A program made the translations under genes and the position numbers. From Kiritimatiellia bacterium (lineage in GTDB: Bacteria; Verrucomicrobiota; Kiritimatiellia; RFP12; UBA1067): a stretch of 64,000 nt of DNA. Positions within the stretch are counted from its first letter, which is position 1. Every line of letters begins with the position of its first letter. The DNA is taken from positions 11,618 to 75,617 of the forward strand of contig JAKSOZ010000005.1 in NCBI GenBank assembly GCA_024405265.1, read 5' to 3'. The notes beneath the pieces are model-generated. The model worked only from the letters and a program-made list of their open reading frames with translations. It was not told the DNA's origin and ran no database searches. Shown here one piece after another: positions 6,097 to 61,849 of the stretch.

Positions 6097-7143
6097 TTAT
6101 AAAGCTTGAATATCGTAGCTATTCGACTCAGACGCTTCATAAGCCGAGAGGACCAGCGTCCAAGTATCCTTCGTGCCCTGAACCTTCTCAAGTTCAAGTT
6201 CTACGCGTTGTCCGGCGATTTCGTCGGTCGCGCGATCGAAACCGAAAATGAAAGTATCTTTCTTCCCCGTTAGCTTTCGGCCTTGCTCGCGGCGAACTTT
6301 ACCGTAACGACTATCAAGGACTTCCATAACCGTCGCGAATTCCTTTTTCGCTGCGGTCTTACCTTCAATCTCAGAGCGAGTCTCGACGCCGATTATCTTG
6401 CCGCCCTTCGCTATGACGAGATAGGTCGAGAAATTACGAAACGGCTGAGCGGGCTTGAAAGAGCGATAAGGCTCTTCCTCTGCTATAGTATCGATCGACG
6501 AGAGTTCAGCGCCGAGATTGATTCCGAGGAAACTTTCAAGCGGTTCCCTCAAAATGAAGTAATTACCGTCTTTATTGTACGTCTTCTCGCAGACCGCGCA
6601 GGCGAGTCGCCCGTCTTTCGACGGCGTGAATATCTCTTGGTGCTCAACACATATATGCTTTACGCAGGCGAGTTCGAATTCGCCCTTCGTGTTTTCGACG
6701 ATTCTGATTTTATCGCGGCTTTGGACATTGCAGGCCTTACAGGTCGCATGTCCACGCAAGATCGTCGATTCGAGCCTACAGATAGTACATTTATCTTCCT
6801 TGTCGCTTACGACGCGCTCATGCTTCGAGCAGTAATGCGAGGCGCAGTAATAAGTGCCGCGCACATTACGAGTACCATCGCGACTACCGCAAACCACGCA
6901 TTCATCTTTACTTAGAGACTTACTGACGTTCGAGCGTTGAGCGGATTTACTCGCGTCGGCTCCGGTTTTAAGCCTCGACTTATAAAGAATCTGGGTCTTC
7001 GTCGGCCCGCACGAGTTTTTCTTTTGATTAGAAGGCGCCTGGGCTACAACAGGCTTGCACTTACCCGCATAAGGGCACTTCGCTTCGGCGATTCCGAGCG
7101 AGAGCGCGGCGAAAACGAAGGTTAATAAAAGTCTTTTCATCAT
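6097..7143 (-). CDS. Hypothetical exported protein with tandem Cys/His-rich (zinc-finger-like) repeats
   Basis: Signal peptide MMKRLLLTFVFAALSLGIAEA; two CxxC...CxxHxCxxH...CxxC units; ATGA overlap with the upstream gene stop. Confidence 0.75.
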   Translation of the reverse strand: MMKRLLLTFVFAALSLGIAEAKCPYAGKCKPVVAQAPSNQKKNSCGPTKTQILYKSRLKTGADASKSAQRSNVSKSLSKDECVVCGSRDGTRNVRGTYYCASHYCSKHERVVSDKEDKCTICRLESTILRGHATCKACNVQSRDKIRIVENTKGEFELACVKHICVEHQEIFTPSKDGRLACAVCEKTYNKDGNYFILREPLESFLGINLGAELSSIDTIAEEEPYRSFKPAQPFRNFSTYLVIAKGGKIIGVETRSEIEGKTAAKKEFATVMEVLDSRYGKVRREQGRKLTGKKDTFIFGFDRATDEIAGQRVELELEKVQGTKDTWTLVLSAYEASESNSYDIQAL

Positions 7144-10100
7144 TCTCCTATCTCGATAAACGCGCGGAAGAACTTGAAGCCACTCTTATTATCATCAGTA
7201 ACTTCAGTCCAAGATCCCTCTTCGGCAAGTTCCGCCTTACCCTTAAGTACGGGAGTGATATTGTAGTCTCCGCTCTCGATCTCAGCAACAGGACCTTCGG
7301 CCGTCATCGTAATCGTGACCTTGAAGTTCTTCTTCGCCGCCTCAATCGCCTCTTCATTCGGCGCGCAGTTAAGCGCGAAGGCGACAAGGTTGATCGCCTC
7401 GCCGGGCTTCGTCGACGAACTATACGTTTTCGCCCATTCAACGATTTTCTTAGGCTCGACCTTAAGCTCCACAAGCATGGCACCCTGTTCGGCTCCAACG
7501 AGCTCCGCAACCGTCGTAGTTTCCGTTACCACAACCTCTTCCCAAGTCGTTGCGCCGGAAGGAGTTACAATCGACGACTCAACGGTATTAACGAACATAC
7601 CGCTGATTTCATCGGCGAGCTTACCTGTAGACGGCTTCACTTCGTCGCCGCCTTCGGTAATTTCACCTGTGAAGCCTGGCATCGTAGCTATGAGCGTGAA
7701 TGTTTTGGCGTGTTTCTTATTCAAATTGACAGTGGCGGTGGTCGTCCTACGAACGTTTTCATCGTCGACAATGCCGGTCATAACCAAATACTTACTCGAA
7801 GACGACAAGCCGGTTTTAACCAAACATTTCGCCGTCGAACCATCATCGGGACCATGAACGGTTGAAAGTCCGCCAACGGCAACCACTGTCGCACCCTCGT
7901 TGATGTAGAGCTTATGCGCGATGCCGTTGTCGACGGCCGTCGGATCTTCGCTCGGGTCAACATCAAGCGCCTCATGTTCCGTTGAGGTTGTGAACGCAAA
8001 GACATATCCACCCGAGATCGTCATATCACCATTGGAATCAATCGCATCACCGGCCGTGGACATCGCATAGACAATGCCTCCGGAGATGTTAATATGATTT
8101 GCCGCGCTGAAGCAATCATCAGCAGCAGTCAAATTTAAAACACCGCCCTTAACGAGAATCGTATCGTCGGAGCTGAAGATTTCCGAACCTTCTCCGGATG
8201 CAGTGGCGACAACCGTTCCACCATTGATTTCAATCTCCTTTTTGCTCTTGAAAACATTGGCCTTTGTGCCGCCTTCAGTGGCAGTCGTAACAGTCACCTT
8301 GCCGCAGTTCTTCGTGAGCTTGATCTTGCCATCGGTATTCATGAAGCGCGGAGCCGTTCCTCCAAGCGTGACGGTAACATCCGTGCCACCGAGTTTCGCG
8401 TCATTCGTCCCCTTACCGAGTTTGAACGCGGCGGAACTTTCTCCACCGGCGATTGTCGTCGTAAAGGTTCCTCCATTAAGTTCAACGGCGTAAATTCCGT
8501 TCCCTAACGCGTCTTTCGTCGCCGTATTACAGTAGAAACCGAATACCTGATTCTCGGATGAGAGATTGACGACAACATTGCCGCCATTTTGAATATACGG
8601 CTTGGTAAGCGTGACAGCAGCCGTTCCCGCTTCGCCGTTCGCGTAGTCAATCGTGAGCGTGCCATCGCCCTCAATCGTGAGCGTGCCGGTCGTTGTCATC
8701 GTCGAGAGCGTATTCTCACCCTTCAAGGTCAACGTGACATCCCCGTCGATCTTCACGCCGCCGTTGAAATTGGCACCGTTGAGTGTATAGACACCGGCCT
8801 CAAAGGTTTGAAGGTCGTCGAAATCGCCCGTGATATCCCCTTCAGCCGGGGGATCAATAGGCTCGACCGGAGGCGGCTCGGGTGCGACATAACCGGGGGC
8901 TTCCGAAAGTTCGGCCGCAACCCAAGTGTCATCAGCATAAATATGCTTGGCGAACTTATCTACCGCCTTAACACCGATGGCGGACTGCGAAAGCATCTCA
9001 CGATAATAAATCTGCACCCCGGTAGAATCGGTCATGGTAATACGCAAATCACCGTCCGTAATCTTGGACCATGTACCGCCGAACTTAGCTTCCTTATCCG
9101 CCATAGCAATGCGGAGATAATCGCCACCGGCAATCGACACTCCCTCGGCAAGCGTAATCGCACACTTCGAAGCGCTATCCGCATCCGCAGTCTTGCAGAT
9201 ATTGATCGCCGCACCACCCACGTCAAGAGCTTCCGTTCCGATATTTTCGAAGATGATGAATTCACCGATGCCATCATTATCAGTAAGCGGCGCACCGCAG
9301 AAGCCGTAGAGCTTGAGATACTTCTCCTGCGCGCTCGGCTCAGGCGGCGCGATAACCGTCTCTTCGCCGGCCTTGAGCGTAATAACTTCCGTTTCGACCG
9401 CCTCGCCATTGCCGACAACAATCTGGTTAGTGATGAGCCCAAGCTCATTCATCTTCGCGATAGTTGCGCGGCGATCCGCGGAAACGTACACTTCCGCGGG
9501 ATTCTCTTCGGATCCTTCATCAATGACCGTACCCGCAGGAAGCGTCATTGAAACGGGACCCGAAAGCGCCCAACCCGACATATCGACAGCCTCCGCGTTC
9601 GTATTCTTAATTACGAGTGCCGCGATATCTTCACGATACTCAGCCGTGAAGCCACTCTTCAAATCGGCGATCGAGGACTGCGCTTCGGGAATGCCGGCGG
9701 CGAGATTGGTGCCGTAGCCGACGCCCTTTTCCGTATTGCTGATCGAGTGCGTGACGTAAAGGTGCTGACGACGAGGAACGATATAGTCATCCCAAATTTC
9801 CTTAATACCCGCCTGCATCGACTCGGGCCACGGCTTATCGCCACCCCAAACATCGATATTGCCGATGGAACTGTCGTGCGGCCATCTTGTCCGATCGAGA
9901 ACCGCATCCTTCTCCATCAGCGCGGCGATTTCGCGAATCTTCTTCATAAGAGAAATCTGCGAATTCGTCTCGTTCTCCTCACCCGTCGTATCGGGAGCAC
10001 CGAGTTCCTGATCCATGAGCGTCCGCAGACGGCGCAGATAAAGTCGACGGAACTTCGCGTTCTGCCACACGGCCTCCATACCGTCATTACCGCTATTGCA

Positions 10101-13100
10101 GGTTGTCGAATAAGCCGTGCTCTTGTAACAGCGCACGCGATTGCCACCGTAGAACGGGTGAGACTTAAACCAATCCTGATTCGCCATCAGACCATAGCCG
10201 GAGCCGACGTCGTTATGATACCACTGGCCAAGCGAAAGGTTGAAGTCATACCCGAGCGGCATCCACGTATCCGTACCGCGCACGCCTTCCTTCATCTCGG
10301 CGTTATCATAGTAAATCGAGATGTTCGCCCAAACGTCGTCCATTTCCTGGGTGATACGCGCCGAAGCGAGATAGTTAAGCCACGCCGGAAGATTGAACTT
10401 CTCGACGACGAACTTGGTCAGGGTCGGATTGTCGAGGCCTTCCGTAGACACACCGTTCAGATCATTCTTAACCTGCTGCGCGGCAACGATCTTCGAACGG
10501 AATTGATTCTGCAGCACCGAGACATTGCTTTCGTCGCCATCATCCGGCGTCTTCTTCTCGATTCCGCCTGCAGTCGTTCCCGAACCGCTCTTGAGCGTAC
10601 CGACGTTCTTATAACCATAGCCGTACTTGTCGAGCTTATGGAAGTCTTCGATAAGCTCATCCGTAAAACGCTCGGAATGGAACGCCATTTGGAAGAACTT
10701 ACCGTTGAGATTACACCTGACCGGGAAATCGAACGGAACTTTATTCCCCATCTTCGTCCACAGCCAGAAACTCATCATCTGTCGCATGTATGACGGATCC
10801 GCCGGTTCTCCGATCAGGGAACTCTTACGAACTTCCTCACGCATTTCACCCGCAACAGGATCCCACATCGTCAACGGATGCGCCTTCGAGAAACGAAGAC
10901 CGTGAGACTTCTTATTGAAGTGCGCCGATGTATTGCCGCGCAAATCGATACGAACATAATCATAGTAATTCGACGTCGAGCTGTCGTAAATCGCGATACG
11001 GGCATTGTACGGCACCTTCGAAAGGTCCTGCTTCGGTGCGTCGACATCCATCTGCTGAAGCGAGACGGAATCGGCAAACATATGCCACGTCGCAAGCGAT
11101 TCGCTGTTCAGCTCTCCGGGTTCGACAATCGTCCCGTACCACTCGTAACCGTCATCCTTATTAAGGTGACTCGGGCTCGTAAACGTGACGTTTGACTTGT
11201 CGGTCACCTCGAACTTCCACTGAATGAGATGTCCCGCGCCGATCGTATCGAACGCCTCGTGCGGGATTACGGCCGTGTAAAGGTCGCCCTGATCCGCATT
11301 ATCCGTCGTCTTTTCGAGCGAAACTTCACGACGCGTCAATGTCTTGTCATCAAGATCGGTGCGATAAAGAAGCGTGATACTTGTAATCGCGTCTTCATCG
11401 CGGAATCCCGCAATCGCCGTCGGCGACATCACGGGATTAAGCGGGAAGACAATCTCGTAATCCTCGCCGATCTTGGCGGGAGCAACAGGTCCGAACTCAT
11501 TCGTGCTCGTATGCTTCTTCTTGCTCGAAATCTCATAAAGCGGCCCAACCGTCGGACCGAGCGTTACCAAATCGCCCGTCGCATTCGCCGATCCAGGCGT
11601 CGGATATTGCGTCATGTAGCGCTTAAGCGTTTCGCCTTCGACCGCCTTTTCGACGATAATCGAGTGACCTTCCGGGAAGTCGATCGGAATGACGACCGTA
11701 TCAATCGGAGTCTCCGCACCACCCTTAACATAGTAAAGACGCACGAACGGGGACTTCTTCGGATTGACCTTGTCACCCCAAATCATCATGTCATATTCAT
11801 CAAAATACTTCGGCTTGCCGTCGAAGGTGCCGTGCTGCCAAGCACTGTCCTTGGCACTGATGCTATTCGAATAACGCTCAGAAGTATAAAAGACGTATTT
11901 GGCATGCGGCGCGATAAGCGTGGACGGGAACGCACCCGCGTCAATCTTCGTCGCCTTGCCGCGATTGACGCGCGTAAAAGCGTAATCGGCAAGATCAACC
12001 CACTTATCCGACATATTCTCAAGTTCGACCCAGCCGGATTCAAGTCCGTTCTTATCATACCGCGCGAGCGACGCGGGATAAAGCGTCGAGGCGGGCTTAT
12101 CGACCGGCTTGGGCATAATCTCCGAAATGCGCAGCGCGGCAAAATCGGCAATGGAAAGACGAGTCGTGTAAGTTCCATCCTCTTCATTCTTTACGACTTC
12201 GATCGCCACAGTCGCCGGATCGAAAATCGTCTCTCCCTCGCGCTTAAACACGCCGTCCTCGAAGATAATCGTCTCATCGAGAATCGTCACAACTCCGCCA
12301 TTCGAAGCCACGACAAAGGCCTCTCGCAAGTCCCAATACGGAATCAAACCGACAGTGGCGATCGGATCGCCGAACGAATAAACCGTCCACCCGTCGGCAG
12401 TTACGGACCCTATCTGTCGCGTTTCACCTTCGGCCGGAATGACTTTCGCCGCATCGAGTCCGCTATTTTCGCGAACCTTCAAAACGCCGTCCTTGAAGAT
12501 GATCGAGCCGCCGAACGAGGCAAACGAACCGTCGAGAACAAGAGTTCCCTTGCCGTACTTGGCAAGCTTGCAATCATTTGCCTCGGTCGAGAACGCACCG
12601 ATCATTTCCAAGGTCGAACCCGCTTCCACGCAGACGGCATACCCTTTCGTCGCATTGGACGCCAAGCGGAAGCCCGCGTCATTCGTATACGTCACCGTCG
12701 TCGCGGAAGTAGTCGGAGAGGGAACGTAAATCTGCGGATTTTCTTCGCTTGTGCCGCCATTGAAACGAACACTGTTCGCCGAATAACTTGTCTCAATCGT
12801 TGCGCCCGGCTCAAGATAAAAGCGTCCTTGATAAAAGAATGTGTTTGTAGCGTACTGAAGAAGTTTGAGTTCTCCACCGGCATTGACGCGGATGACATTC
12901 CCCTTCGTCGCCGTTGAATTATTGTTCCAGCCCGTGACATCACGAGCGGTGAAATTAAGCGTCGCGCCATCCTTCACGAGAATCGACGGATTCGTATCCG
13001 TACCCGAAAGATCGAAATTCATCGTCTGCACCGTGCCGGCCCAAATCAAGTTATGCGTACCGGACTCGATGACATAGCGCGAAGCCTGTGCCGCTTTATT

Positions 13101-15323
13101 CTCACCGAAATCAAGCGTCGCGCCGTTCTCGCTCGAGCTCTTAAGCGTCACGAGCCACGATTCTTTCTTAAGCGTCGCAATATCACCTGAGGGCATTTCA
13201 TACGCCGCCTTCGTCGTATCGATTGTCCAAGTATGCGCCGCATCGTCCTTTTCGACAACGACATCGGGATCGACTTTCACAACGACGCCTGTGGACGAAA
13301 CCTGAACACCGAGCGGAAGTGCTTCGCCGTTCACCGTCACCTTAATCGCCATATCGGCGAGATTGTTGTCGTCATCTACAACGAAGATCTGATCGCCGAT
13401 CTGCGGCTCGGAGGGAAGATCGATTGCCAATGTTCCCTTAATCGACTTCTTAAGGTAAAGTTTACCCTGCTCAAGGCGGATAACTCCACCTTCGATAATT
13501 GTCGTATTGCAGAGAAGGAAATAGGTATCGGCACTTTCCATCTTAACGATGAGATTACCCCCCGTCAAATCAAGCGTCGTCGCAGCCCAACCCGGCCCCA
13601 AGAGACCGAATTGGCGACCAGAAACAGTGGTCGTTTCCGCGACCGTCAATCGCGTCGTCTGACGACTTCCGTTGCTGATCGCATCACCCGTATTGGTTAT
13701 TTCGCCTTCGCTCGTAATAAAATAACAAGCATCTTTCGTCTTCGCAAGGTCAAGAATCGCCCCTTTCTCAACGAAGATCTCCGCAAGGCTCGAGACATCA
13801 GAAAGATTGTTCGGACCGAATCCGCGATTCGCATTGCTGTCGGTGATCGTCTGCCGAGCCGTACCCGAAAGAACGGTAAGCCCGCCCGTAAACGTGTTTC
13901 TCGCATCAAAAATCATCGAATGATTCACACCCGGATCGGCGGTCACGCGTCCCGCGCCGGAAATCACCTGCGAAATCGTATAATCATCATTGGGCTTCAG
14001 GACGAGATTCGCCTTCTCGCCCACCGTAACCGATTCCGTAATCGCAATATTCGGACAATAAACCTCGCCCTCGCACGAGGACAAATCGAGCGCTCCGACC
14101 GAAGTCACCGCCGGATACGCCGCCGAAAGCGACGCGATTTCCGTCGCCGAAAGCGCCTTACTGTAACCGACCATCTCTTTCACGACGAGCCCGTCGGCGC
14201 GCACGCGTCCATCCGGATTGCCTCCATAAGTCGAGCCGATCTGAATTTTGCCGGCGGCCATTAAGTTAAAATAAGGGTACCAACTACCTGTCGTCTGCGT
14301 GTAGAGCGTGCCGTCAACCGCAAGTGTGGCCGTCTGAGAAGCCATCGAAAGCGTCAACAAATGATAACCCTTCACCGTTGGGCCAACTATTGAATTATAC
14401 AGATATGTCCGATTCTGCTGAAGGACGACAATTCGTCTCTCGGAGTCGAGCGCGAGCGTCAAATGACAACCCGTATTCTCGCCGACACAGAAAAGTACGG
14501 CATGCTGTCCGGAATCAGGCGTCTCAATCATATCCGTCGAACCATACAACGAAATCGCGAAATCTCCCCATTGTCCAAGATTGTCGCGATACGGATGCCA
14601 CTTGTTGCTCGCATCAGTATTGTAAACGACATACGCCGATTCAGCACCCTTCGCGCCGATTACGGTGCGCGGCTTACCGGTCGTGTCTTCACCCTTCCAA
14701 CTCGTGAACCATCCGCTCGGATTCGTGCCGGGCGTCCAGGAGAAGTCAGGTGTCTGCGCGGAATGAGCCGCGTTATACGTAGCAACGAGCGCGGCGATAC
14801 CCTCTGTTGATGTCGCGCCGTTATAAATGGCTATATCGCTCACACAGGACGAGAAATCAAAGCGCGTACCCATCGTCGCACTGGTACCAGTCGCACGAAG
14901 GTCGTCCGCACGAAACGTTATTGTTCCGTTAGCATCATAAGCAGTCACGCCTTCATTGTTCGGTCCATAGACGCAAACAACCAATCCTTCGCTACCAAGC
15001 TCCGTCGTATTAATCGTGCCTCCAGTCCAATTCGCATCTTGCCACCAACCTTTTAAGACACCGCTATTTGAACACAATCCAACAATTCCCGTATAGCGCG
15101 TCTGATTCGACTGCGACCATGAAACGAGACGATCCGTACCCGACTGCGGCAAGTTCGCATACTTAAAGATAATCGTCGCACCGTCGGAGACAGACCACCC
15201 CTCGCTTCGCGTGTAGGTCGTACTGTCTTCGCTAATCGTATAGTCGTCGACCAAGTCCGCAGCGAAAGTGAACGAAGACACAAGCATTGCGACACACAAT
15301 GCAAAAACTGAACGGATCTTCAT
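7140..15323 (-). CDS. Giant secreted multidomain protein (LamG-like, autotransporter-passenger-like repeats, lamin-tail domains, CotH kinase, Cthe_2159-like carbohydrate-binding beta-helix)
   Basis: Start at ATG 15323 (SD aaggag, signal peptide MKIRSVFALCVAML). CotH-like motifs DLRGNTSAHFNKKSHGLRF, DPSYMRQ, MDDVWAN, WMPLGYDFNLSLG; LTD-like LRISEIMP...WVELEN and LVIKNTNAEAVDMSGWAL; Cthe_2159-like VTLTLKGENTL, GDAIDSNGDMTISGGYVFA. Confidence 0.85.
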   Translation of the reverse strand: MKIRSVFALCVAMLVSSFTFAADLVDDYTISEDSTTYTRSEGWSVSDGATIIFKYANLPQSGTDRLVSWSQSNQTRYTGIVGLCSNSGVLKGWWQDANWTGGTINTTELGSEGLVVCVYGPNNEGVTAYDANGTITFRADDLRATGTSATMGTRFDFSSCVSDIAIYNGATSTEGIAALVATYNAAHSAQTPDFSWTPGTNPSGWFTSWKGEDTTGKPRTVIGAKGAESAYVVYNTDASNKWHPYRDNLGQWGDFAISLYGSTDMIETPDSGQHAVLFCVGENTGCHLTLALDSERRIVVLQQNRTYLYNSIVGPTVKGYHLLTLSMASQTATLAVDGTLYTQTTGSWYPYFNLMAAGKIQIGSTYGGNPDGRVRADGLVVKEMVGYSKALSATEIASLSAAYPAVTSVGALDLSSCEGEVYCPNIAITESVTVGEKANLVLKPNDDYTISQVISGAGRVTADPGVNHSMIFDARNTFTGGLTVLSGTARQTITDSNANRGFGPNNLSDVSSLAEIFVEKGAILDLAKTKDACYFITSEGEITNTGDAISNGSRQTTRLTVAETTTVSGRQFGLLGPGWAATTLDLTGGNLIVKMESADTYFLLCNTTIIEGGVIRLEQGKLYLKKSIKGTLAIDLPSEPQIGDQIFVVDDDNNLADMAIKVTVNGEALPLGVQVSSTGVVVKVDPDVVVEKDDAAHTWTIDTTKAAYEMPSGDIATLKKESWLVTLKSSSENGATLDFGENKAAQASRYVIESGTHNLIWAGTVQTMNFDLSGTDTNPSILVKDGATLNFTARDVTGWNNNSTATKGNVIRVNAGGELKLLQYATNTFFYQGRFYLEPGATIETSYSANSVRFNGGTSEENPQIYVPSPTTSATTVTYTNDAGFRLASNATKGYAVCVEAGSTLEMIGAFSTEANDCKLAKYGKGTLVLDGSFASFGGSIIFKDGVLKVRENSGLDAAKVIPAEGETRQIGSVTADGWTVYSFGDPIATVGLIPYWDLREAFVVASNGGVVTILDETIIFEDGVFKREGETIFDPATVAIEVVKNEEDGTYTTRLSIADFAALRISEIMPKPVDKPASTLYPASLARYDKNGLESGWVELENMSDKWVDLADYAFTRVNRGKATKIDAGAFPSTLIAPHAKYVFYTSERYSNSISAKDSAWQHGTFDGKPKYFDEYDMMIWGDKVNPKKSPFVRLYYVKGGAETPIDTVVIPIDFPEGHSIIVEKAVEGETLKRYMTQYPTPGSANATGDLVTLGPTVGPLYEISSKKKHTSTNEFGPVAPAKIGEDYEIVFPLNPVMSPTAIAGFRDEDAITSITLLYRTDLDDKTLTRREVSLEKTTDNADQGDLYTAVIPHEAFDTIGAGHLIQWKFEVTDKSNVTFTSPSHLNKDDGYEWYGTIVEPGELNSESLATWHMFADSVSLQQMDVDAPKQDLSKVPYNARIAIYDSSTSNYYDYVRIDLRGNTSAHFNKKSHGLRFSKAHPLTMWDPVAGEMREEVRKSSLIGEPADPSYMRQMMSFWLWTKMGNKVPFDFPVRCNLNGKFFQMAFHSERFTDELIEDFHKLDKYGYGYKNVGTLKSGSGTTAGGIEKKTPDDGDESNVSVLQNQFRSKIVAAQQVKNDLNGVSTEGLDNPTLTKFVVEKFNLPAWLNYLASARITQEMDDVWANISIYYDNAEMKEGVRGTDTWMPLGYDFNLSLGQWYHNDVGSGYGLMANQDWFKSHPFYGGNRVRCYKSTAYSTTCNSGNDGMEAVWQNAKFRRLYLRRLRTLMDQELGAPDTTGEENETNSQISLMKKIREIAALMEKDAVLDRTRWPHDSSIGNIDVWGGDKPWPESMQAGIKEIWDDYIVPRRQHLYVTHSISNTEKGVGYGTNLAAGIPEAQSSIADLKSGFTAEYREDIAALVIKNTNAEAVDMSGWALSGPVSMTLPAGTVIDEGSEENPAEVYVSADRRATIAKMNELGLITNQIVVGNGEAVETEVITLKAGEETVIAPPEPSAQEKYLKLYGFCGAPLTDNDGIGEFIIFENIGTEALDVGGAAINICKTADADSASKCAITLAEGVSIAGGDYLRIAMADKEAKFGGTWSKITDGDLRITMTDSTGVQIYYREMLSQSAIGVKAVDKFAKHIYADDTWVAAELSEAPGYVAPEPPPVEPIDPPAEGDITGDFDDLQTFEAGVYTLNGANFNGGVKIDGDVTLTLKGENTLSTMTTTGTLTIEGDGTLTIDYANGEAGTAAVTLTKPYIQNGGNVVVNLSSENQVFGFYCNTATKDALGNGIYAVELNGGTFTTTIAGGESSAAFKLGKGTNDAKLGGTDVTVTLGGTAPRFMNTDGKIKLTKNCGKVTVTTATEGGTKANVFKSKKEIEINGGTVVATASGEGSEIFSSDDTILVKGGVLNLTAADDCFSAANHINISGGIVYAMSTAGDAIDSNGDMTISGGYVFAFTTSTEHEALDVDPSEDPTAVDNGIAHKLYINEGATVVAVGGLSTVHGPDDGSTAKCLVKTGLSSSSKYLVMTGIVDDENVRRTTTATVNLNKKHAKTFTLIATMPGFTGEITEGGDEVKPSTGKLADEISGMFVNTVESSIVTPSGATTWEEVVVTETTTVAELVGAEQGAMLVELKVEPKKIVEWAKTYSSSTKPGEAINLVAFALNCAPNEEAIEAAKKNFKVTITMTAEGPVAEIESGDYNITPVLKGKAELAEEGSWTEVTDDNKSGFKFFRAFIEIGE

Positions 15324-15370
15324 AGAAGATTCTCCTTCTTTTGTGGTATGTTGTTTTCTCAACAGCAACC

Positions 15371-15379
15371 ATTATACCA
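15371..15379 (-). promoter_or_regulatory. Extended -10 promoter (TGGTATAAT) for the giant CotH protein
   Basis: attatacca 47 nt upstream of the ATG. Confidence 0.6.
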
Positions 15380-15587
15380 AAATCCCCACCCTCTCGTCAT
15401 CATCCTTTTACGCAAGCAAAGAAACGAACTGATCGTTGAGCGCGTTTCTTCGAGCGTCATTTTTCCGCCTCTTAGAAAGAATCGGCGATTCCAGGCTAGA
15501 TCGGGCACAACTCTAGGGCGCTAATTTCCGGGGACTGTCCCCATTGCTCTAAACCGGGAACTGTCCCCGTTCCCTCACCTCCTCTTC

Positions 15588-16523
15588 TCATGCCGCTACC
15601 TCCGCGTGCCCATGCGACGAAAACGCCCAACCTCCGACTTGTTTCGGGCGGCATCTCCGTCCATAAAGCGCCGCGCTGAACTCAATCGCGCTCGCCCTCA
15701 CAAACTCCTTCCCGCCTAATATCTTACCTAAGCCTACCTGCGGCACTCTTTTCGTCACATCCACCCCCGATTCTTCCCCCTGTTTTCGGGGACTGTCCCC
15801 ATTTCCATCAGCGCTTCCGATTATCAAGCTTGACGTATAGTTTCTGCATTTAACGGCAAACGCTTCTCCTCTCGCAGCTCCGCCTGCCGAGCTCCAAGGA
15901 TATTCTTCCGGTGTTGCTACCATCTCGGCGCGAACCGGGTTATACTCGATATATTTGCGACAATTATTGAAATAATGCTCGTTTTCCACGATAGTAGACT
16001 TAAAACGCCCTCCCCAGATCGAACCTGAGTATTCTACGAGCTTCTTAAAGCGAATATTGAAAACTTCCTTAAAAGTTTTAACGAACTGACTTAAATCTTG
16101 CATTCTCACGCGATATCTGTCAATCTCCGCTTCAGCCTCGCGCTTCTGTTTGCTCTTACGAAGCATTTTGATGTAACCTGCTATTTCTTTAGCCCTCTTC
16201 TCTCCTTTAAGCACGCCTAGCCTTCGCATCACTTCTTCTTCCGCTATTTTCCACTTGAATTTCTCGGGGACTGTCCCCAAATTCTTTGCGATTTCCACAA
16301 GGGCGGTTTCGATGGTCGGGACCTCTACAGTCAAGTGAAAGTAATCGTCCATAATGACATACGAGCAGATCTTGACCCCGCTGAATTCGGCCGAGATGCG
16401 AAGCGAATCAACCATTATTCGCTTGATTCGCGGATCTTTCAATAGAAAGCGCTTCCCGGCGATACGAGACATAACATGATAGAACGCATCGTTTTCGCTC
16501 TTTACTCTTCTGGTTCTTGCCAT
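15588..16523 (-). mobile_element. Y1 HUH transposase, REP-associated tyrosine transposase (RAYT)-like
   Basis: FYHVMSR, YVIMDDYFHL (HUH position), IWGGRFKS, YIEYNPVRAEMV..PEEYPWSS; flanked by short palindromes. Confidence 0.85.
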
Positions 16524-16565
16524 AATATTTACCCTCCTTCATTGATAGTTATGCAAGGTATGTAA

Positions 16566-16752
16566 ATATTATCTCATATTCCGAAAAATCAAGTGTCACA
16601 TTTGCGTCACAAAATTGTGACGCAAAAATCCGCTACCTTTTGAGGACGATATGCCTTATACCCCGATAAGCATTGGCTGAAGTCGCGATTCGCGAGAGTT
16701 TACCGAATCTAATAATTCGTCTGAGTAAAATCTTTTTTTGTGACGATGAGGT
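16566..16752 (-). promoter_or_regulatory. 187-bp non-coding module, copy 1 (extended -10 TGAGATAAT plus GTCAC/GTGAC hairpin) upstream of the transposase
   Basis: Ungapped match to 61663-61849 (31 mismatches by hand count, ~83%); 12-bp inverted repeat TTTGCGTCACAA-AA-TTGTGACGCAAA. Confidence 0.85.
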
Positions 16753-16853
16753 TTTGACGGGAGTTTCTGCTTGAATCTCATGGGGACAGGCCCCGGAGAC
16801 TGACTGGGGACAGACCCCGAATATTTCTATATCTCTCCGAGAGTTAAATCAAA

Positions 16854-16887
16854 TCCTTACTAGCATTTAGAATATTACTAGTAAGGA
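16854..16887. terminator. 10-bp inverted repeat, possible bidirectional terminator or operator
   Basis: TCCTTACTAG-14 nt-CTAGTAAGGA with T-rich flanks on both strands; the stem is AT-rich, so weak. Confidence 0.3.
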
Positions 16888-17032
16888 ACTTTTCTTGGGG
16901 CAGGAGCTGATAAAATACTCAACCGAGAGGGCGAATATGCTCACCCACATGAAGTTCGGCGGTATTCCGCGTGTTCTACTCACATATTCTAACACTTGCG
17001 CAGGTTAAATCCGCATAGAATCAGTCCTTAAA

Positions 17033-17434
17033 TTATTTCAAATATCTTTCATCAAACTCATTCGCATTACTTATTCTATTCCCAAGCTTAACAACTTTTT
17101 CTCCTATGTCATGCAATTCTTTTAATCGGTTCCTAATTTTAGGCCAATCGATTTCTGCAAAAGCATGCCGTCTCTCCCCTCCACAATTGGTAACACCGAC
17201 ATATATGAGAAAGCACGGATCCAATCTATCACCAACTGCATAATTGTGCGCAGCCTCGATTGTCTTTATAATACCACCCGTCAATTTCCCAATCTTCCCA
17301 AAACACCTCAATAACAAAAGCGTCTTGTTTATCACTATATCTACTATCATTCGGGAAATCACGCACTTCCAAAGGCACATAACGCCCTCCCCAGTCATAC
17401 AAATGAGGGATATAATATCCCTTTTGGTACCCAT
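17033..17434 (-). CDS. AT-rich hypothetical protein or gene remnant
   Basis: Open frame from ATG 17434, lower GC than flanks, extended -10 (TGGTACAAT) at 17580-17588. No recognisable motif, and a competing frame also looks protein-like. Confidence 0.25.
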   Translation of the reverse strand: MGTKRDIISLICMTGEGVMCLWKCVISRMIVDIVINKTLLLLRCFGKIGKLTGGIIKTIEAAHNYAVGDRLDPCFLIYVGVTNCGGERRHAFAEIDWPKIRNRLKELHDIGEKVVKLGNRISNANEFDERYLK

Positions 17435-17649
17435 AGCCTTCCTGCCATGAGTTTCTAGTGAACTTATTATCTTAAGATTTCCTACGTTTCTCTCGACGAT
17501 CGCTCTGCAGCACTGCAAATTGTTTCCGCGGCATTTCACCGCGCATCCGGCAGAATGTCTCCCCCGCCGAACGTCTGGCATTGTACCATATTCCCGCTGG
17601 AGCTGGAAGCGGAAAGCTTAAAAATCTGCCGCGTTTGACCAACTTGTTT

Positions 17650-17800
17650 AGGGGTATACCCCTCTCTTGTCTAAGGGTATAACCCCCTCGCTTGAGAGGG
17701 TTATACCCCAAGAGCCTTTAGGGTTATACCCTCTAACTCGAGAGGGGTATACCCTCTAACGAGTATCTCTCGCTCTTCCCGTGAATTAAGGGTTATACTC
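17650..17800. repeat. 23-bp-period array of palindromic AGGG(G/T)TATACCC motifs
   Basis: Units start at 17650, 17673, 17697, 17720, 17743 and 17789 (spacings 23, 24, 23, 23, 46). Confidence 0.85.
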
Positions 17801-18225
17801 GAATAGAGGGAGTTGTAACGGATAGGCGTAGGAAGAACCTATGATTCTCCATTCAGGAGAAGCGCTAAAGGAGCGAGCAATAGACGCACCGAAGAAGTAG
17901 GTGAGGCTAGTGACGCAAGATTGAGTGTTGAGCTGAGCTTTTAGCGAGGATTTCGGTTCGGGGATTTCGCGTTCGAGAACAAGTAGGCCGAGGAGGAGTA
18001 TCCGCCGACGACGGCATACGAAGTTATCGGGCGCGAAAGCAACGAGAGAAAGACTCGGGAAAAGCGGGAGCGAGACCGAAAGCGAAGCGGCAGCTCGCCG
18101 AATTCGACCAGGGTGCCATGCGCGGCCAAATTCGCCGACACAAGGTAAAGGCAAAAGTAGGTATAATCGCACGGGAATCGTGAAACGATTTACTTTGGTG
18201 CGAGTTGCCGCGTTCGGCAAGAATA

Positions 18226-18234
18226 TGATACAAT
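18226..18234 (+). promoter_or_regulatory. Extended -10 promoter (TGATACAAT), leaderless configuration
   Basis: -10 ends 7 nt before ATG 18242; no SD sequence. Confidence 0.65.
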
Positions 18235-18241
18235 ACTCGCC

Positions 18242-19660
18242 ATGTCGGTAATTTTAGCTTCTGAACGTAAATCTTTCAAAGCGCGAGTCATGCTCGCGAT
18301 CATCTATTCGGCGCTCACGCTCGGCGCGGTGACGATGATCTATCCTTTCGCGGTAATGCTCGCCGCCTCCGGCTCCAGCGGCTACGATTATCAGCGCCAC
18401 TCCCCTTTCATAACCGGTCTTACCGACCGTTCCGACCGTTTCATGCGCTCAATCAGCTCATACTTCCGCGCGTTCCCACGCGCGCTTTATCCTGACGCGC
18501 CGGAATCTTGGACGACTTGGGTGAATGTCGCGAAGGATCGAGAAGGAATAACGACTTTCGCCGCTAGAGAACTCGCCGCGTTCGATAATTCCGAGTCGAG
18601 AACCGCCGCGCGAGAATACTTGAAGAGCCTTTCGAATCGCGACATAAATGAACTCGGTTGCAATTACGATGCGAGAGACGTAGCCAGATTCTTGAAGGCG
18701 AAATATTCATCGATCGATAAGCTCAATCAAACCTGGCCGGTACCATATCGTTCGTTCTTCGATGTTTCCTTCTCAGCGGAACTTAAAGCGAATCAGCGGC
18801 GTCTACCCTCAAACGGAGACAAGGCCGAATCTTGGAGAGAATTCAAAGCGTGGTATTTAAAGCGAGCGATCGCGAGCGATGATTTCGTATCGCGTACGCT
18901 TCCTGTCGAGCTCGAAAAAGAGCGTGAGGAGATTCGCCGCGCTTTGGCAGTGCAATTTCTAGAGCATGGATGGCGCGATTTCGTACACAGTCTCTTCGCA
19001 AATTATCGTATGGTCTTCGATTTTCTCTTCTTTCGAGGACGCGCTTTCGTCAATACGATCATTCTCGTAGTCCTCTCGGTTCTTTCTTCGCTTACCGTGA
19101 ACCCGCTCGCCGCCTATGCTTTAAGTCGCTTCAATCTAAAGGCGACGGAAAGCATCATTCTATTTCTTTTGGCGACGATGGCGTTCCCCGCGGCAGTTAC
19201 GGCGATTCCGGGATTCTTGCTGATTCGTGATCTCGGAATGCTCAATACTTTCGCCGCGCTTATCCTCCCCACAATCGCGAGCGGTATGTCGATTTTCATC
19301 TTGAAGGGATTCTTCGACGCCTTGCCGCGTGAGCTTTACGAAGCCGCCTCCATCGACGGTGCAAGCGAATGGACGGTATTCACGCGAATCACGCTGCCGA
19401 TGACGACGCCGATTTTAGCGGTAAATGCCTTGAATTCGTTCATTCACGCATATTCGTCGTGGGAGTGGGCGTTTCTCGTTTGCCAAAAGGAATCTCACTG
19501 GACGCTGGCGGTTTGGATGTACCAAATGTCGCAAACCTTCGCGCATCAGCCGTGGTGCGTGATGGCAGGATTCGTAGTCGTTTCGATTCCTACCGCTGTC
19601 GTCTTTCTGGTTTGTCAGAAAGTGATTCTAAAGGGAATCGTACTTCCCTCAATGAAGTGA
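18242..19660 (+). CDS. Carbohydrate ABC transporter permease (MalG-like) with large periplasmic insertion
   Basis: EAA motif ELYEAASIDGASEWTVFTRITLPMTTP; AAYALSRF; N-terminal TM helix followed by a ~200-aa soluble insertion. Confidence 0.9.
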   Translation: MSVILASERKSFKARVMLAIIYSALTLGAVTMIYPFAVMLAASGSSGYDYQRHSPFITGLTDRSDRFMRSISSYFRAFPRALYPDAPESWTTWVNVAKDREGITTFAARELAAFDNSESRTAAREYLKSLSNRDINELGCNYDARDVARFLKAKYSSIDKLNQTWPVPYRSFFDVSFSAELKANQRRLPSNGDKAESWREFKAWYLKRAIASDDFVSRTLPVELEKEREEIRRALAVQFLEHGWRDFVHSLFANYRMVFDFLFFRGRAFVNTIILVVLSVLSSLTVNPLAAYALSRFNLKATESIILFLLATMAFPAAVTAIPGFLLIRDLGMLNTFAALILPTIASGMSIFILKGFFDALPRELYEAASIDGASEWTVFTRITLPMTTPILAVNALNSFIHAYSSWEWAFLVCQKESHWTLAVWMYQMSQTFAHQPWCVMAGFVVVSIPTAVVFLVCQKVILKGIVLPSMK

Positions 19661-61629: not shown

Positions 61630-61662
61630 ATGTATACCTCCTGTTGTTAAAAGCGTATACAT

Positions 61663-61849
61663 ATATTATCTCATATTTCGGAAAATCAAGTGTCACATTT
61701 GCGTCACATTTTTGTGACGCAAAAATCCGCTGCTTTTTGAGATCGACCTCGACTTCACCCCGATAAACATTGGGCGAAGTCGCGATTCGCGAAAGTTCAC
61801 TCAGGTTAACTATTCGTCTGACAAAAATCTTTTTTTGTGACGATGAGGT
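61663..61849 (-). promoter_or_regulatory. 187-bp non-coding module, copy 2, upstream of the RhuM-like gene
   Basis: Ungapped ~83% match to 16566-16752; hairpin TTTGCGTCACA-TTTT-TGTGACGCAAA; TGAGATAAT extended -10. Confidence 0.85.

Follow-up and report, generated by a model that had tools for sequence, protein, structure and literature searches.

A 13-bp palindromic repeat in and around a Y1 HUH transposase gene family of the Kiritimatiellae

A Y1 HUH transposase gene of the RAYT/TIRYT-like kind, found in an uncultured gut-type member of the Kiritimatiellae, is flanked by copies of a 13-bp palindrome and carries two perfect copies in frame within its own coding sequence. The palindrome layout is real and is conserved across orthologues and paralogues of the gene family. 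The locus is likely a unit of the TIRtron/REPtron type, i.e. a single-strand DNA nuclease/transposase of the RAYT/TIRYT kind (Y1 HUH) together with its cognate short repeat.

Results

Palindromes at the locus

The DNA analysed is a 64-kb stretch, termed here the window, from a metagenome-assembled genome (MAG) of 1.7 Mb that consists of 56 contigs and is 77% complete. All genomes compared are also incomplete MAGs. A pattern search with GGGGACWGTCCCC, allowing up to two mismatches, shows six sites in the window, and all are within positions 15530–16818. The mean number expected by chance is 0.57, and none of 100 dinucleotide shuffles reaches six. Three of the sites are perfect (15530, 15788 and 16266) and the other three display one mismatch each (15556, 16782 and 16806). 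The first-pass annotation had listed the six 13-mers, their arrangement, the in-frame readings LGTVP and GDSP and the shared flanks, and this observation was correct in every detail.

Two of the sites form a downstream doublet at positions 15530–15568, 20–46 nt past the stop codon of the gene; the copy at 15530–15542 is perfect and the one at 15556–15568 has one mismatch. In single-stranded DNA the two copies pair as a single hairpin with a delta G = −11.5 kcal/mol (z = −3.1). Both in-gene copies are perfect. Site 1 (16266–16278), which reads GGGGACAGTCCCC on the sense strand, is situated after the HUH strand and encodes (L)GTVP at amino acid positions 82–86 in frame 2. Site 2 (15788–15800) encodes GDSP at positions 242–245 in frame 0 and falls in a hypervariable linker before the C-terminal domain. 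An upstream doublet at 16782–16818 consists of copies at 16782–16794 and 16806–16818, each with one mismatch, 259–295 nt 5′ of the ATG.

An extended form, TTTYC-GGGGACTGTCCCC-ATT, is present on the plus strand in four copies, the two downstream and the two in-gene ones. The TTTYC-core-ATT flanks of the three perfect copies span positions 15525–15545, 15783–15803 and 16261–16281. The upstream pair is inverted with respect to the other four copies, and 18-nt arms at 15527–15544 and 16780–16797 are 94% complementary, which is a terminal-inverted-repeat arrangement.

A dispersed non-coding module of 195 bp (16558–16752, minus strand) lies between the upstream doublet and the gene and contains a 26-bp palindrome, TTTGCGTCACAA-aa-TTGTGACGCAAA (16601–16626). 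Three further copies of the module are found in the genome; thus it is probably a portable promoter/leader, separate from the 13-mer repeat family. An Rfam scan of positions 14500–18500 gave only a meaningless weak miRNA match.

The transposase gene and its protein

The open reading frame at 15588–16523 on the minus strand is the only long one in positions 15200–17200. It has an AAGGAGG ribosome-binding site just 5′ of the ATG and encodes a protein of 311 aa. The Pfam Y1_Tnp domain is found at amino acid positions 13–70 with a score of 28.9 bits (cut-off 23). The NCBIfam model REP_Tyr_transpos (NF047646) gives 66 bits (E-value = 3.3e-18), which is under the curated equivalog cut-off of 80. The protein is related to the NF047646 REP-associated tyrosine transposase but is no equivalog of it. 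A total of 135 homologues were found; the named ones are all from Kiritimatiellae, some of them annotated as "REP element-mobilizing transposase RayT".

An alignment of 18 homologues shows the conserved motifs D[DN]HFH (the HUH strand), W-x-x-RF, Y[IV]E[LYM]NPVRA, WSS and, at the C-terminal end, F[SA]SHG[HW]. The catalytic tyrosine motif YIEYNP (15936–15953, minus strand; positions 191–196) carries the class-2 signature Y---NP (PMC6006769), and its Y, N and P are invariant across the 18 homologues. An AlphaFold model built on the same alignment has a mean pLDDT of 82.6. Among solved structures it best matches 4ER8, the E. coli TnpA_REP in complex with a REP hairpin; the ISDra2 and IS608 transposases come next. 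Fold and Y---NP signature are both those of class 2 TnpA-Y1, the RAYT/TnpA_REP superfamily. The RAYT-like identity proposed in the first-pass annotation is thus borne out by the Y1_Tnp domain, the sub-cut-off REP_Tyr_transpos hit, the YIEYNP motif and the structural match to 4ER8. The spacing from HUH to Y is approximately 108–128 aa, and Pfam detects no DnaA_C-like HTH domain in the C-terminus.

The HUH motif of the window copy reads Y-F-H (TAC TTT CAC; 16335–16343, minus strand), as does that of a relative with 98% identity, P0001. The other 16 of the 18 aligned homologues display H-[FLI]-H, with H-F-H in 14 of them, so that an intact H-u-H is a property of the family that is lacking in the window copy. 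Both histidines of HUH enzymes hold the metal ion. Because Y-F-H here replaces H-u-H, the window copy is probably catalytically impaired, a weak or dead nuclease as predicted from its sequence.

The window gene is single-copy in its genome. The sole clear paralogue found by tblastn is C2, with 28% identity, a length of 330 aa and an HTH-like segment at its end. C2 has no 13-mer nearby and is flanked instead by its own 57-nt palindromic inverted repeats.

The 13-mer as a dispersed repeat

The 1.7-Mb MAG contains 24 perfect and 23 one-mismatch copies of the 13-mer, whereas base composition predicts 0.07 perfect copies. When the 47 sites are oriented on the central A, they give the consensus AAAAY-GGGGACAG[T/A]CCCC-RAAWTT. 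Doublets are common, with successive copies 21–26 bp apart; units are also found singly, triplets are present in genome G019, and several copies are situated near contig ends. In 24 other genomes of the same genus there are 0–66 perfect 13-mers per genome, and in 16 genomes from other families of the same order 0–3, while a reversed-pattern control gives 0–1 per genome. The REP-like repeat of the earlier annotation, for which it had proposed a genome-wide count, is therefore present genome-wide and tied to the Y1 gene family. No published account of this 13-mer in bacteria was found in a literature search.

The repeat core, GGGGAC-W-GTCCCC, consists of two overlapping inverted 8-mers, GGGGACAG and CTGTCCCC. 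Isolated 8-mer half-sites show no enrichment in the window's genome, and thus the full palindrome is the repeated unit. The 13-mer contains no stop codon in any of the six frames and always encodes Gly-x-x-Pro. A single 13-nt palindrome folds weakly (a 5-bp stem), unlike classical REP hairpins. Since the downstream doublet folds as one hairpin, doublets may be the real substrates, by analogy with REPINs.

Association with the gene family and shared layout

From the genome-wide density, 0.035 sites are expected in 1.3 kb where six are found at this locus, and the enrichment at Y1 genes is approximately 170-fold. This, with the conserved layout, is the opposite of an absence of enrichment near RAYT genes, which had been named as evidence against the first-pass reading. 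The 13-mer is found at 11 of 12 same-genus homologue loci (L002–L010, L013, L017, L018) and on all four contigs with close orthologues, which share 60–87% identity (L021–L024).

These loci share a layout. At least one copy, often a doublet or triplet, is situated 5′ of the gene at −30 to −300. Site 1 follows the HUH strand at about amino acid position 80, and site 2 is in the linker before the C-terminal domain at about positions 190–250. One copy or a doublet is then found 18–140 nt past the stop codon. The orthologue contigs show no synteny with the giant gene that neighbours the transposase gene.

Within the genus, family and motif co-occur (16/4 versus 1/4, Fisher p = 0.023). The protein and the motif are linked by association, from which we infer that the family may bind and cut the 13-mer. 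Two genomes have the motif and no family member or orthologue. G022 (82% complete) has 58 perfect copies, and a search there for a cognate Y1 gene found no member of the family, only a short RAYT of the classical kind, whose GC-rich REPs are unrelated. G009, an incomplete assembly, has 12 copies without an orthologue of the window gene; an empty site was sought there, but synteny is broken across contigs and gives no boundaries for the unit. At the family members L012, L015, L016 and L019, which are outside the genus, and at L010, which is in the genus and lacks the 13-mer, the flanks show no convincing inverted repeats of GGGGWSAS type.

Conservation of the in-gene copies as DNA

A perfect-13-mer peptide signature is carried at site 2 by 55 of 120 homologues, and it is found in all three frames, as GD[SC]P, GTVP and GLSP. 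The residue after GD[SC]P always has a codon that starts with C, which completes the 13-mer. Close orthologues as well as L002 and L003 read GDSP at the linker site, and L004–L007 and L009 read G[ST]VP. Because homologues differ in the frame in which they read the linker site, with all three frames in use, it is the DNA that is conserved and not the peptide. A codon alignment of five orthologues shows the same codon in only 42 of 164 amino-acid-identical columns, and GGG GAC AGT CCC is kept nonetheless.

At site 1, GTVP is found in 28 of 120 homologues. The insert at this site is restricted to the close clade P0001–P0008, where some members have two units with a 7-codon period, e.g. LGTVPGKILGTVPGK. 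The homologue alignment, which the first-pass annotation had called for, thus places site 1 in a clade-specific insert and site 2 in a hypervariable linker read in three frames, and it sustains the view of the in-gene copies as DNA elements. A conserved protein segment whose DNA palindrome is lost, named there as contrary evidence, is not what is seen in L008 and L010: these have lost the palindrome and the peptide is gone as well.

In L023 one 21-bp unit, GGGGACAGTCCCCgcgaagca (gcggagca at site 1), stands at both in-gene sites and again 3′ of the gene. The presence of the same unit at three places points to copying of units between neighbouring sites. The model places both in-gene sites in loops of low confidence, with a pLDDT of 60 for the block at 83–94 and of 59–64 for positions 236–254.

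The same units in other genes

At least 16 of the 47 sites are inside real coding sequences. A HAD-type phosphatase reads HYF[GDSPQNQKGDCPH]FDHIVG, and ten homologues (L028–L037) are nine residues shorter at this position; in the HAD phosphatase of G009 the spacer is shorter and a further doublet lies at another place in the gene. An alpha-N-acetylglucosaminidase-like gene (NAGLU) carries GKMGTVPNNNMGSVPG, an 11-residue insertion compared with the 75%-identical G009 orthologue, and BioD ends in LGTVPNSLGTVPRIF. The HAD and NAGLU doublets are in-frame insertions relative to orthologues, with lengths that differ between G000 and its closest relative G009. The insertion into the transposase itself had been singled out in the earlier annotation; with the same units in frame in HAD, NAGLU and BioD, the transposase gene is no special target.

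Single sites are also found in the coding sequences of bioB, folK, a hydrogenase-like gene and a membrane protein. These show no change in length relative to G009, and thus there has been no simple insertion at these places since the species split. The four sites are old or have arisen without simple insertion, and are poorly explained by the main model.

An internal copy at the boundary of a copied segment

Genome G016 contains two orphan copies of approximately 310 bp, each a nearly identical match to the 3′ portion of the intact G008 gene. The similarity starts 7 nt 5′ of the internal palindrome (gggattc|GGGGACAGTCCCC), continues through the C-terminal domain and the stop codon, and ends 5 nt past the downstream half-site (CTGTCCCC|ggttt). 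The orphan copies have unrelated flanking sequences, and one of them is joined in frame to another open reading frame. These two are the only orphan modules among 41 genomes. As judged from the alignment, the internal site is shown to act as the boundary of a copied segment. With its boundaries at a palindrome and a half-site, the moved unit therefore has the ends GGGGACAG...CTGTCCCC, and the 13-mer is both ends overlapping by three bases.

Eight orphan N-terminal fragments (query aa 1–70) in relatives, which resembled breaks at site 1, were checked; each is truncated by a contig end and is therefore an assembly artefact. A supposed gene remnant at C54:43218–43574 matches through motif-coded peptides only and has no homology to the gene.

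Discussion

Proposed origin of the layout and alternatives

In the preferred explanation, a dimeric enzyme of the active family members would recognise the repeat ends on single-stranded DNA, then cut and rejoin beside them, and by this means repeats would be scattered round the chromosome. Copies that land in frame in protein surface loops would be tolerated because the 13-mer is stop-free in every frame and always gives Gly-x-x-Pro. Two such copies would have been retained in the enzyme's own gene, at the insert that follows the HUH strand and at the linker that precedes the C-terminal domain. What keeps the in-gene copies perfect may be ongoing copying from one neighbouring site to another, and not selection on the peptide, and these copies could also serve as element ends.

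An alternative that we regard as possible but unlikely is that the in-gene palindromes are selected cis-elements, working parts that serve either as an operator of the gene itself, where the dimer would repress or roadblock transcription, or as alternative element ends. Perfect 13-mers persist at the same two places while synonymous sites of the orthologues are largely randomised, and among paralogues they persist in three frames; a permissive hot spot with recurrent re-insertion or gene conversion predicts equal persistence, however. The segment from the internal site to the half-site was copied twice in G016 and once fused in frame, which is what an alternative end would produce, but two orphan modules are all that 41 genomes yield. 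The linker position moreover shifts by several residues, and L008 and L010 have no site. If the palindromes are such working parts, a C-terminal cassette consisting of palindrome, approximately 75 codons, stop codon and half-site would be cut out, copied and fused in frame elsewhere, a bacterial analogue of transposon-driven domain shuffling. The Y-F-H protein may also survive as a pure sequence-specific DNA binder with distributed chromosomal sites. Self-targeting, autoregulation and domestication, put forward in the first-pass annotation, would be possible consequences, and the Y-F-H of the window copy is the single pertinent hint.

Less probable still, and in our estimate improbable, is a non-mobile site for a host DNA-binding protein (matS/NBS/SBS/parS-like, or the operator of a regulator) with the Y1 gene a secondary presence. 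A perfect 6-1-6 palindrome in tens of copies per genome has the look of such a site, several copies in coding sequences are orthologous between G000 and G009 without length change, and many copies are just 3′ of promoter-like modules. A host site does not account for tandem doublets and triplets of variable spacing, in-frame indel differences between close relatives, copied segments sharply bounded at the motif or the concentration at Y1 genes (approximately 170-fold) with a conserved layout, and the motif fits the published consensus of TIRYT terminal repeats. The remaining alternative, in which GTVP and GDSP are protein motifs that the family conserves and the palindromic DNA is incidental, we hold to be very improbable. 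A G-T-V-P-E-like peptide does commonly follow the HUH strand in many homologues. Three frames are used at the linker site, however, GD[SC]P is always followed by a C-starting codon, the exact 13-mer is kept at synonymous positions, and chance gives 0.07 perfect 13-mers per genome. An incidental palindrome is already contradicted by the three-frame and codon-alignment results.

Comparison with known systems

RAYT-like genes flanked by terminal inverted repeats were described as TIRtrons, encoding TIRYTs, by Di Nocera, De Gregorio & Rocco (2013; PMC3733652). Many TIRYT repeats share GGGGWSAS, some are self-complementary, and some are moderately abundant families found in dimers or clusters; REPs inside genes were described as well (PMC3733652). 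Quentin et al. (2018; PMC6006769) place TIRYTs in TnpA-Y1 subclass 2.1 and report no REP-like sequences near subclass 2.1 genes. The first-pass annotation had taken REPs inside the gene as a departure from the norm. There is precedent for this, since in-frame REP insertions are known in tnpA_REP genes of subclass 2.4 (Bertels RAYT group 4) and in some members of subclass 2.8, and REP insertions in unrelated genes have also been published (PMC6006769). The in-gene repeat phenomenon is thus already published in another branch of the superfamily.

The locus shares with TIRtrons a RAYT-like Y1 HUH gene with flanking inverted repeats and no GTAG tag in the flank consensus. The core GGGGACAG fits GGGGWSAS at 47 of 47 sites when these are oriented on the central A and a single mismatch is allowed, and CTGTCCCC forms the right end of the 310-bp segment that was copied. 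The repeat is also a dispersed, moderately abundant family, with 47 copies in 1.7 Mb and many doublets. The signatures [DN]HFH, W[GES], Y[IV]E[LYM]NP and WSS are similar to those of subclasses 2.1 and 2.3, a likeness by signature motifs only. In contrast to known TIRtrons, the repeat here is cut down to a 13-bp perfect palindrome of two overlapping ends, in-frame copies are found at two conserved in-gene places, no DnaA_C-like HTH is detected, and the host belongs to the Kiritimatiellae, unsampled in those studies. The HUH-to-Y distance is longer than in subclass 2.1 and nearer that of subclass 2.3. Subclass 2.4 differs in its signatures NH[IFV]H, WQ and YIxNNP and in its long or "double-foot" GTAG-type REP hairpins, and the gene described here has in addition a second internal site, shared family-wide, in the linker that leads to the C-terminal domain.

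The E. coli REPtron (TnpA_REP, REP/BIME, 4ER8) has the same Y1 HUH fold, with repeats that flank the gene and scatter over the chromosome. The Kiritimatiellae repeat differs in having no GTAG guide tetranucleotide and no long imperfect hairpin, and in numbering tens of copies and not hundreds, about one third of them inside genes; the protein, which has a helical insert and a C-terminal domain, is nearly double the length. Classical REPs (subclasses 2.2 and 2.5) are 20–40-nt imperfect hairpins with a 5′ GTAG-type tetranucleotide and hundreds of extragenic copies, a description that the 13-mer does not fit. Elements of IS200/IS605 carry Y---Q and are found as multiple near-identical whole-element copies, whereas this gene carries Y---NP and is single-copy, and it is therefore placed outside that group. 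Rickettsia palindromic elements (RPE) and intragenic REPs are likewise short palindromic selfish DNA present in frame in genes and tolerated in loops, but RPE are 100–150 bp and have no known dedicated transposase, while the units here are 21–26 bp and have a candidate Y1 enzyme.

What is new here is the branch (signatures nearest 2.1/2.3, in Kiritimatiellae), the minimal 13-bp repeat and the second family-wide site in the linker, together with the three-frame evidence and the use of an internal copy as an end. The comparative evidence for DNA-level conservation of in-gene repeats is unusually clean. Natural pairs of H-F-H and Y-F-H orthologues, with a 13-bp target, provide test material for what TIRYT/RAYT enzymes do with their repeats. 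REPs inside a RAYT gene are thereby known from a second superfamily branch as well, in a gut/rumen phylum that has been little studied, and a short dispersed repeat is now linked to TIRYT-type Y1 enzymes, which had been reported without REP-like partners (PMC6006769).

Repeat modules around the transposase gene

A non-coding module of 195 bp (16558-16752) lies between the upstream 13-mer doublet and the start of the transposase gene (15588-16523, minus strand). Three further copies with 81-84% identity are found in the same 1.7-Mb genome (G000), one in the window at 61655-61849 and the others at C9:564-758 and C36:10596-10789. The module contains a perfect 12+12 palindrome, TTTGCGTCACAA-aa-TTGTGACGCAAA, at 16601-16626 as well as an additional TTTTGTGACG box at 16736-16745. 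By appearance, the 195-bp module resembles a portable promoter/operator cassette.

The 1.4-kb gap separating the transposase gene from the next gene is a mosaic made up of three or more additional families of dispersed repeats. Within the gap these repeats occupy positions 17517-17809 and 17839-18137 and are present in 5-15 copies each; one family is also found in the closest relative, G009, in approximately 17 copies. Another short palindrome, GGGTATACCC / GGGTTATACCC, is present in about 5-6 copies clustered at 17640-17800 with a spacing of 20-35 bp. A weak Rfam miRNA match inside this cluster was dismissed as meaningless.

A promoter-like module of approximately 45 bp, TTCGCCGACACAAGGTAAAGGCAAAAGTAGGTATAAT, at 18122-18168 shortly precedes an ABC-permease gene whose ATG lies at 18242. 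The G000 genome carries more than 20 copies; many of them either have a 13-mer palindrome 10-20 bp away or sit where a contig ends. Upstream of uvrB (contig C27) the order is TTCGCCGACACAAGGTAAAGGCAAAAGTAGGTATAAT module, 13-mer, start codon.

On its other side, the transposase gene adjoins a gene on the same strand for a 2742 aa repeat-rich secreted surface protein (7140-15368). No homologue of this protein was found beside orthologous transposase genes on other contigs.

A fusion and other Y1 or RAYT-like genes

In the relative G016 (C32:20740-21140), the transposase's copied C-terminal module is joined in frame behind an unrelated open reading frame that begins with a signal-peptide-like sequence. 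The resulting chimeric frame is about 135 aa long.

A genome of the same genus, G022, has 58 copies of the 13-mer, yet no member of the window-type transposase family was detected in its assembly. A short classical RAYT-like open reading frame is present on its contig C207 with GC-rich REP hairpins, which translate as repeated GRAELVSAASVADATSASLP and extend in frame into the adjoining TetR-like and surface-protein open reading frames.

G000 itself carries a second Y1 gene (C2:35300-36370; positions 525-1666 of the fetched locus L065), whose 330 aa product displays ENHFH and YIHLNP and has an HTH-like C-terminal end. Inverted repeats of 57 nt, themselves self-complementary (ATGTGTCAAAATTA...TAATTTTGACACAT), closely bracket the gene at either end. 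Gene and repeats together are a separate TIRtron, with a repeat that differs from the 13-mer.
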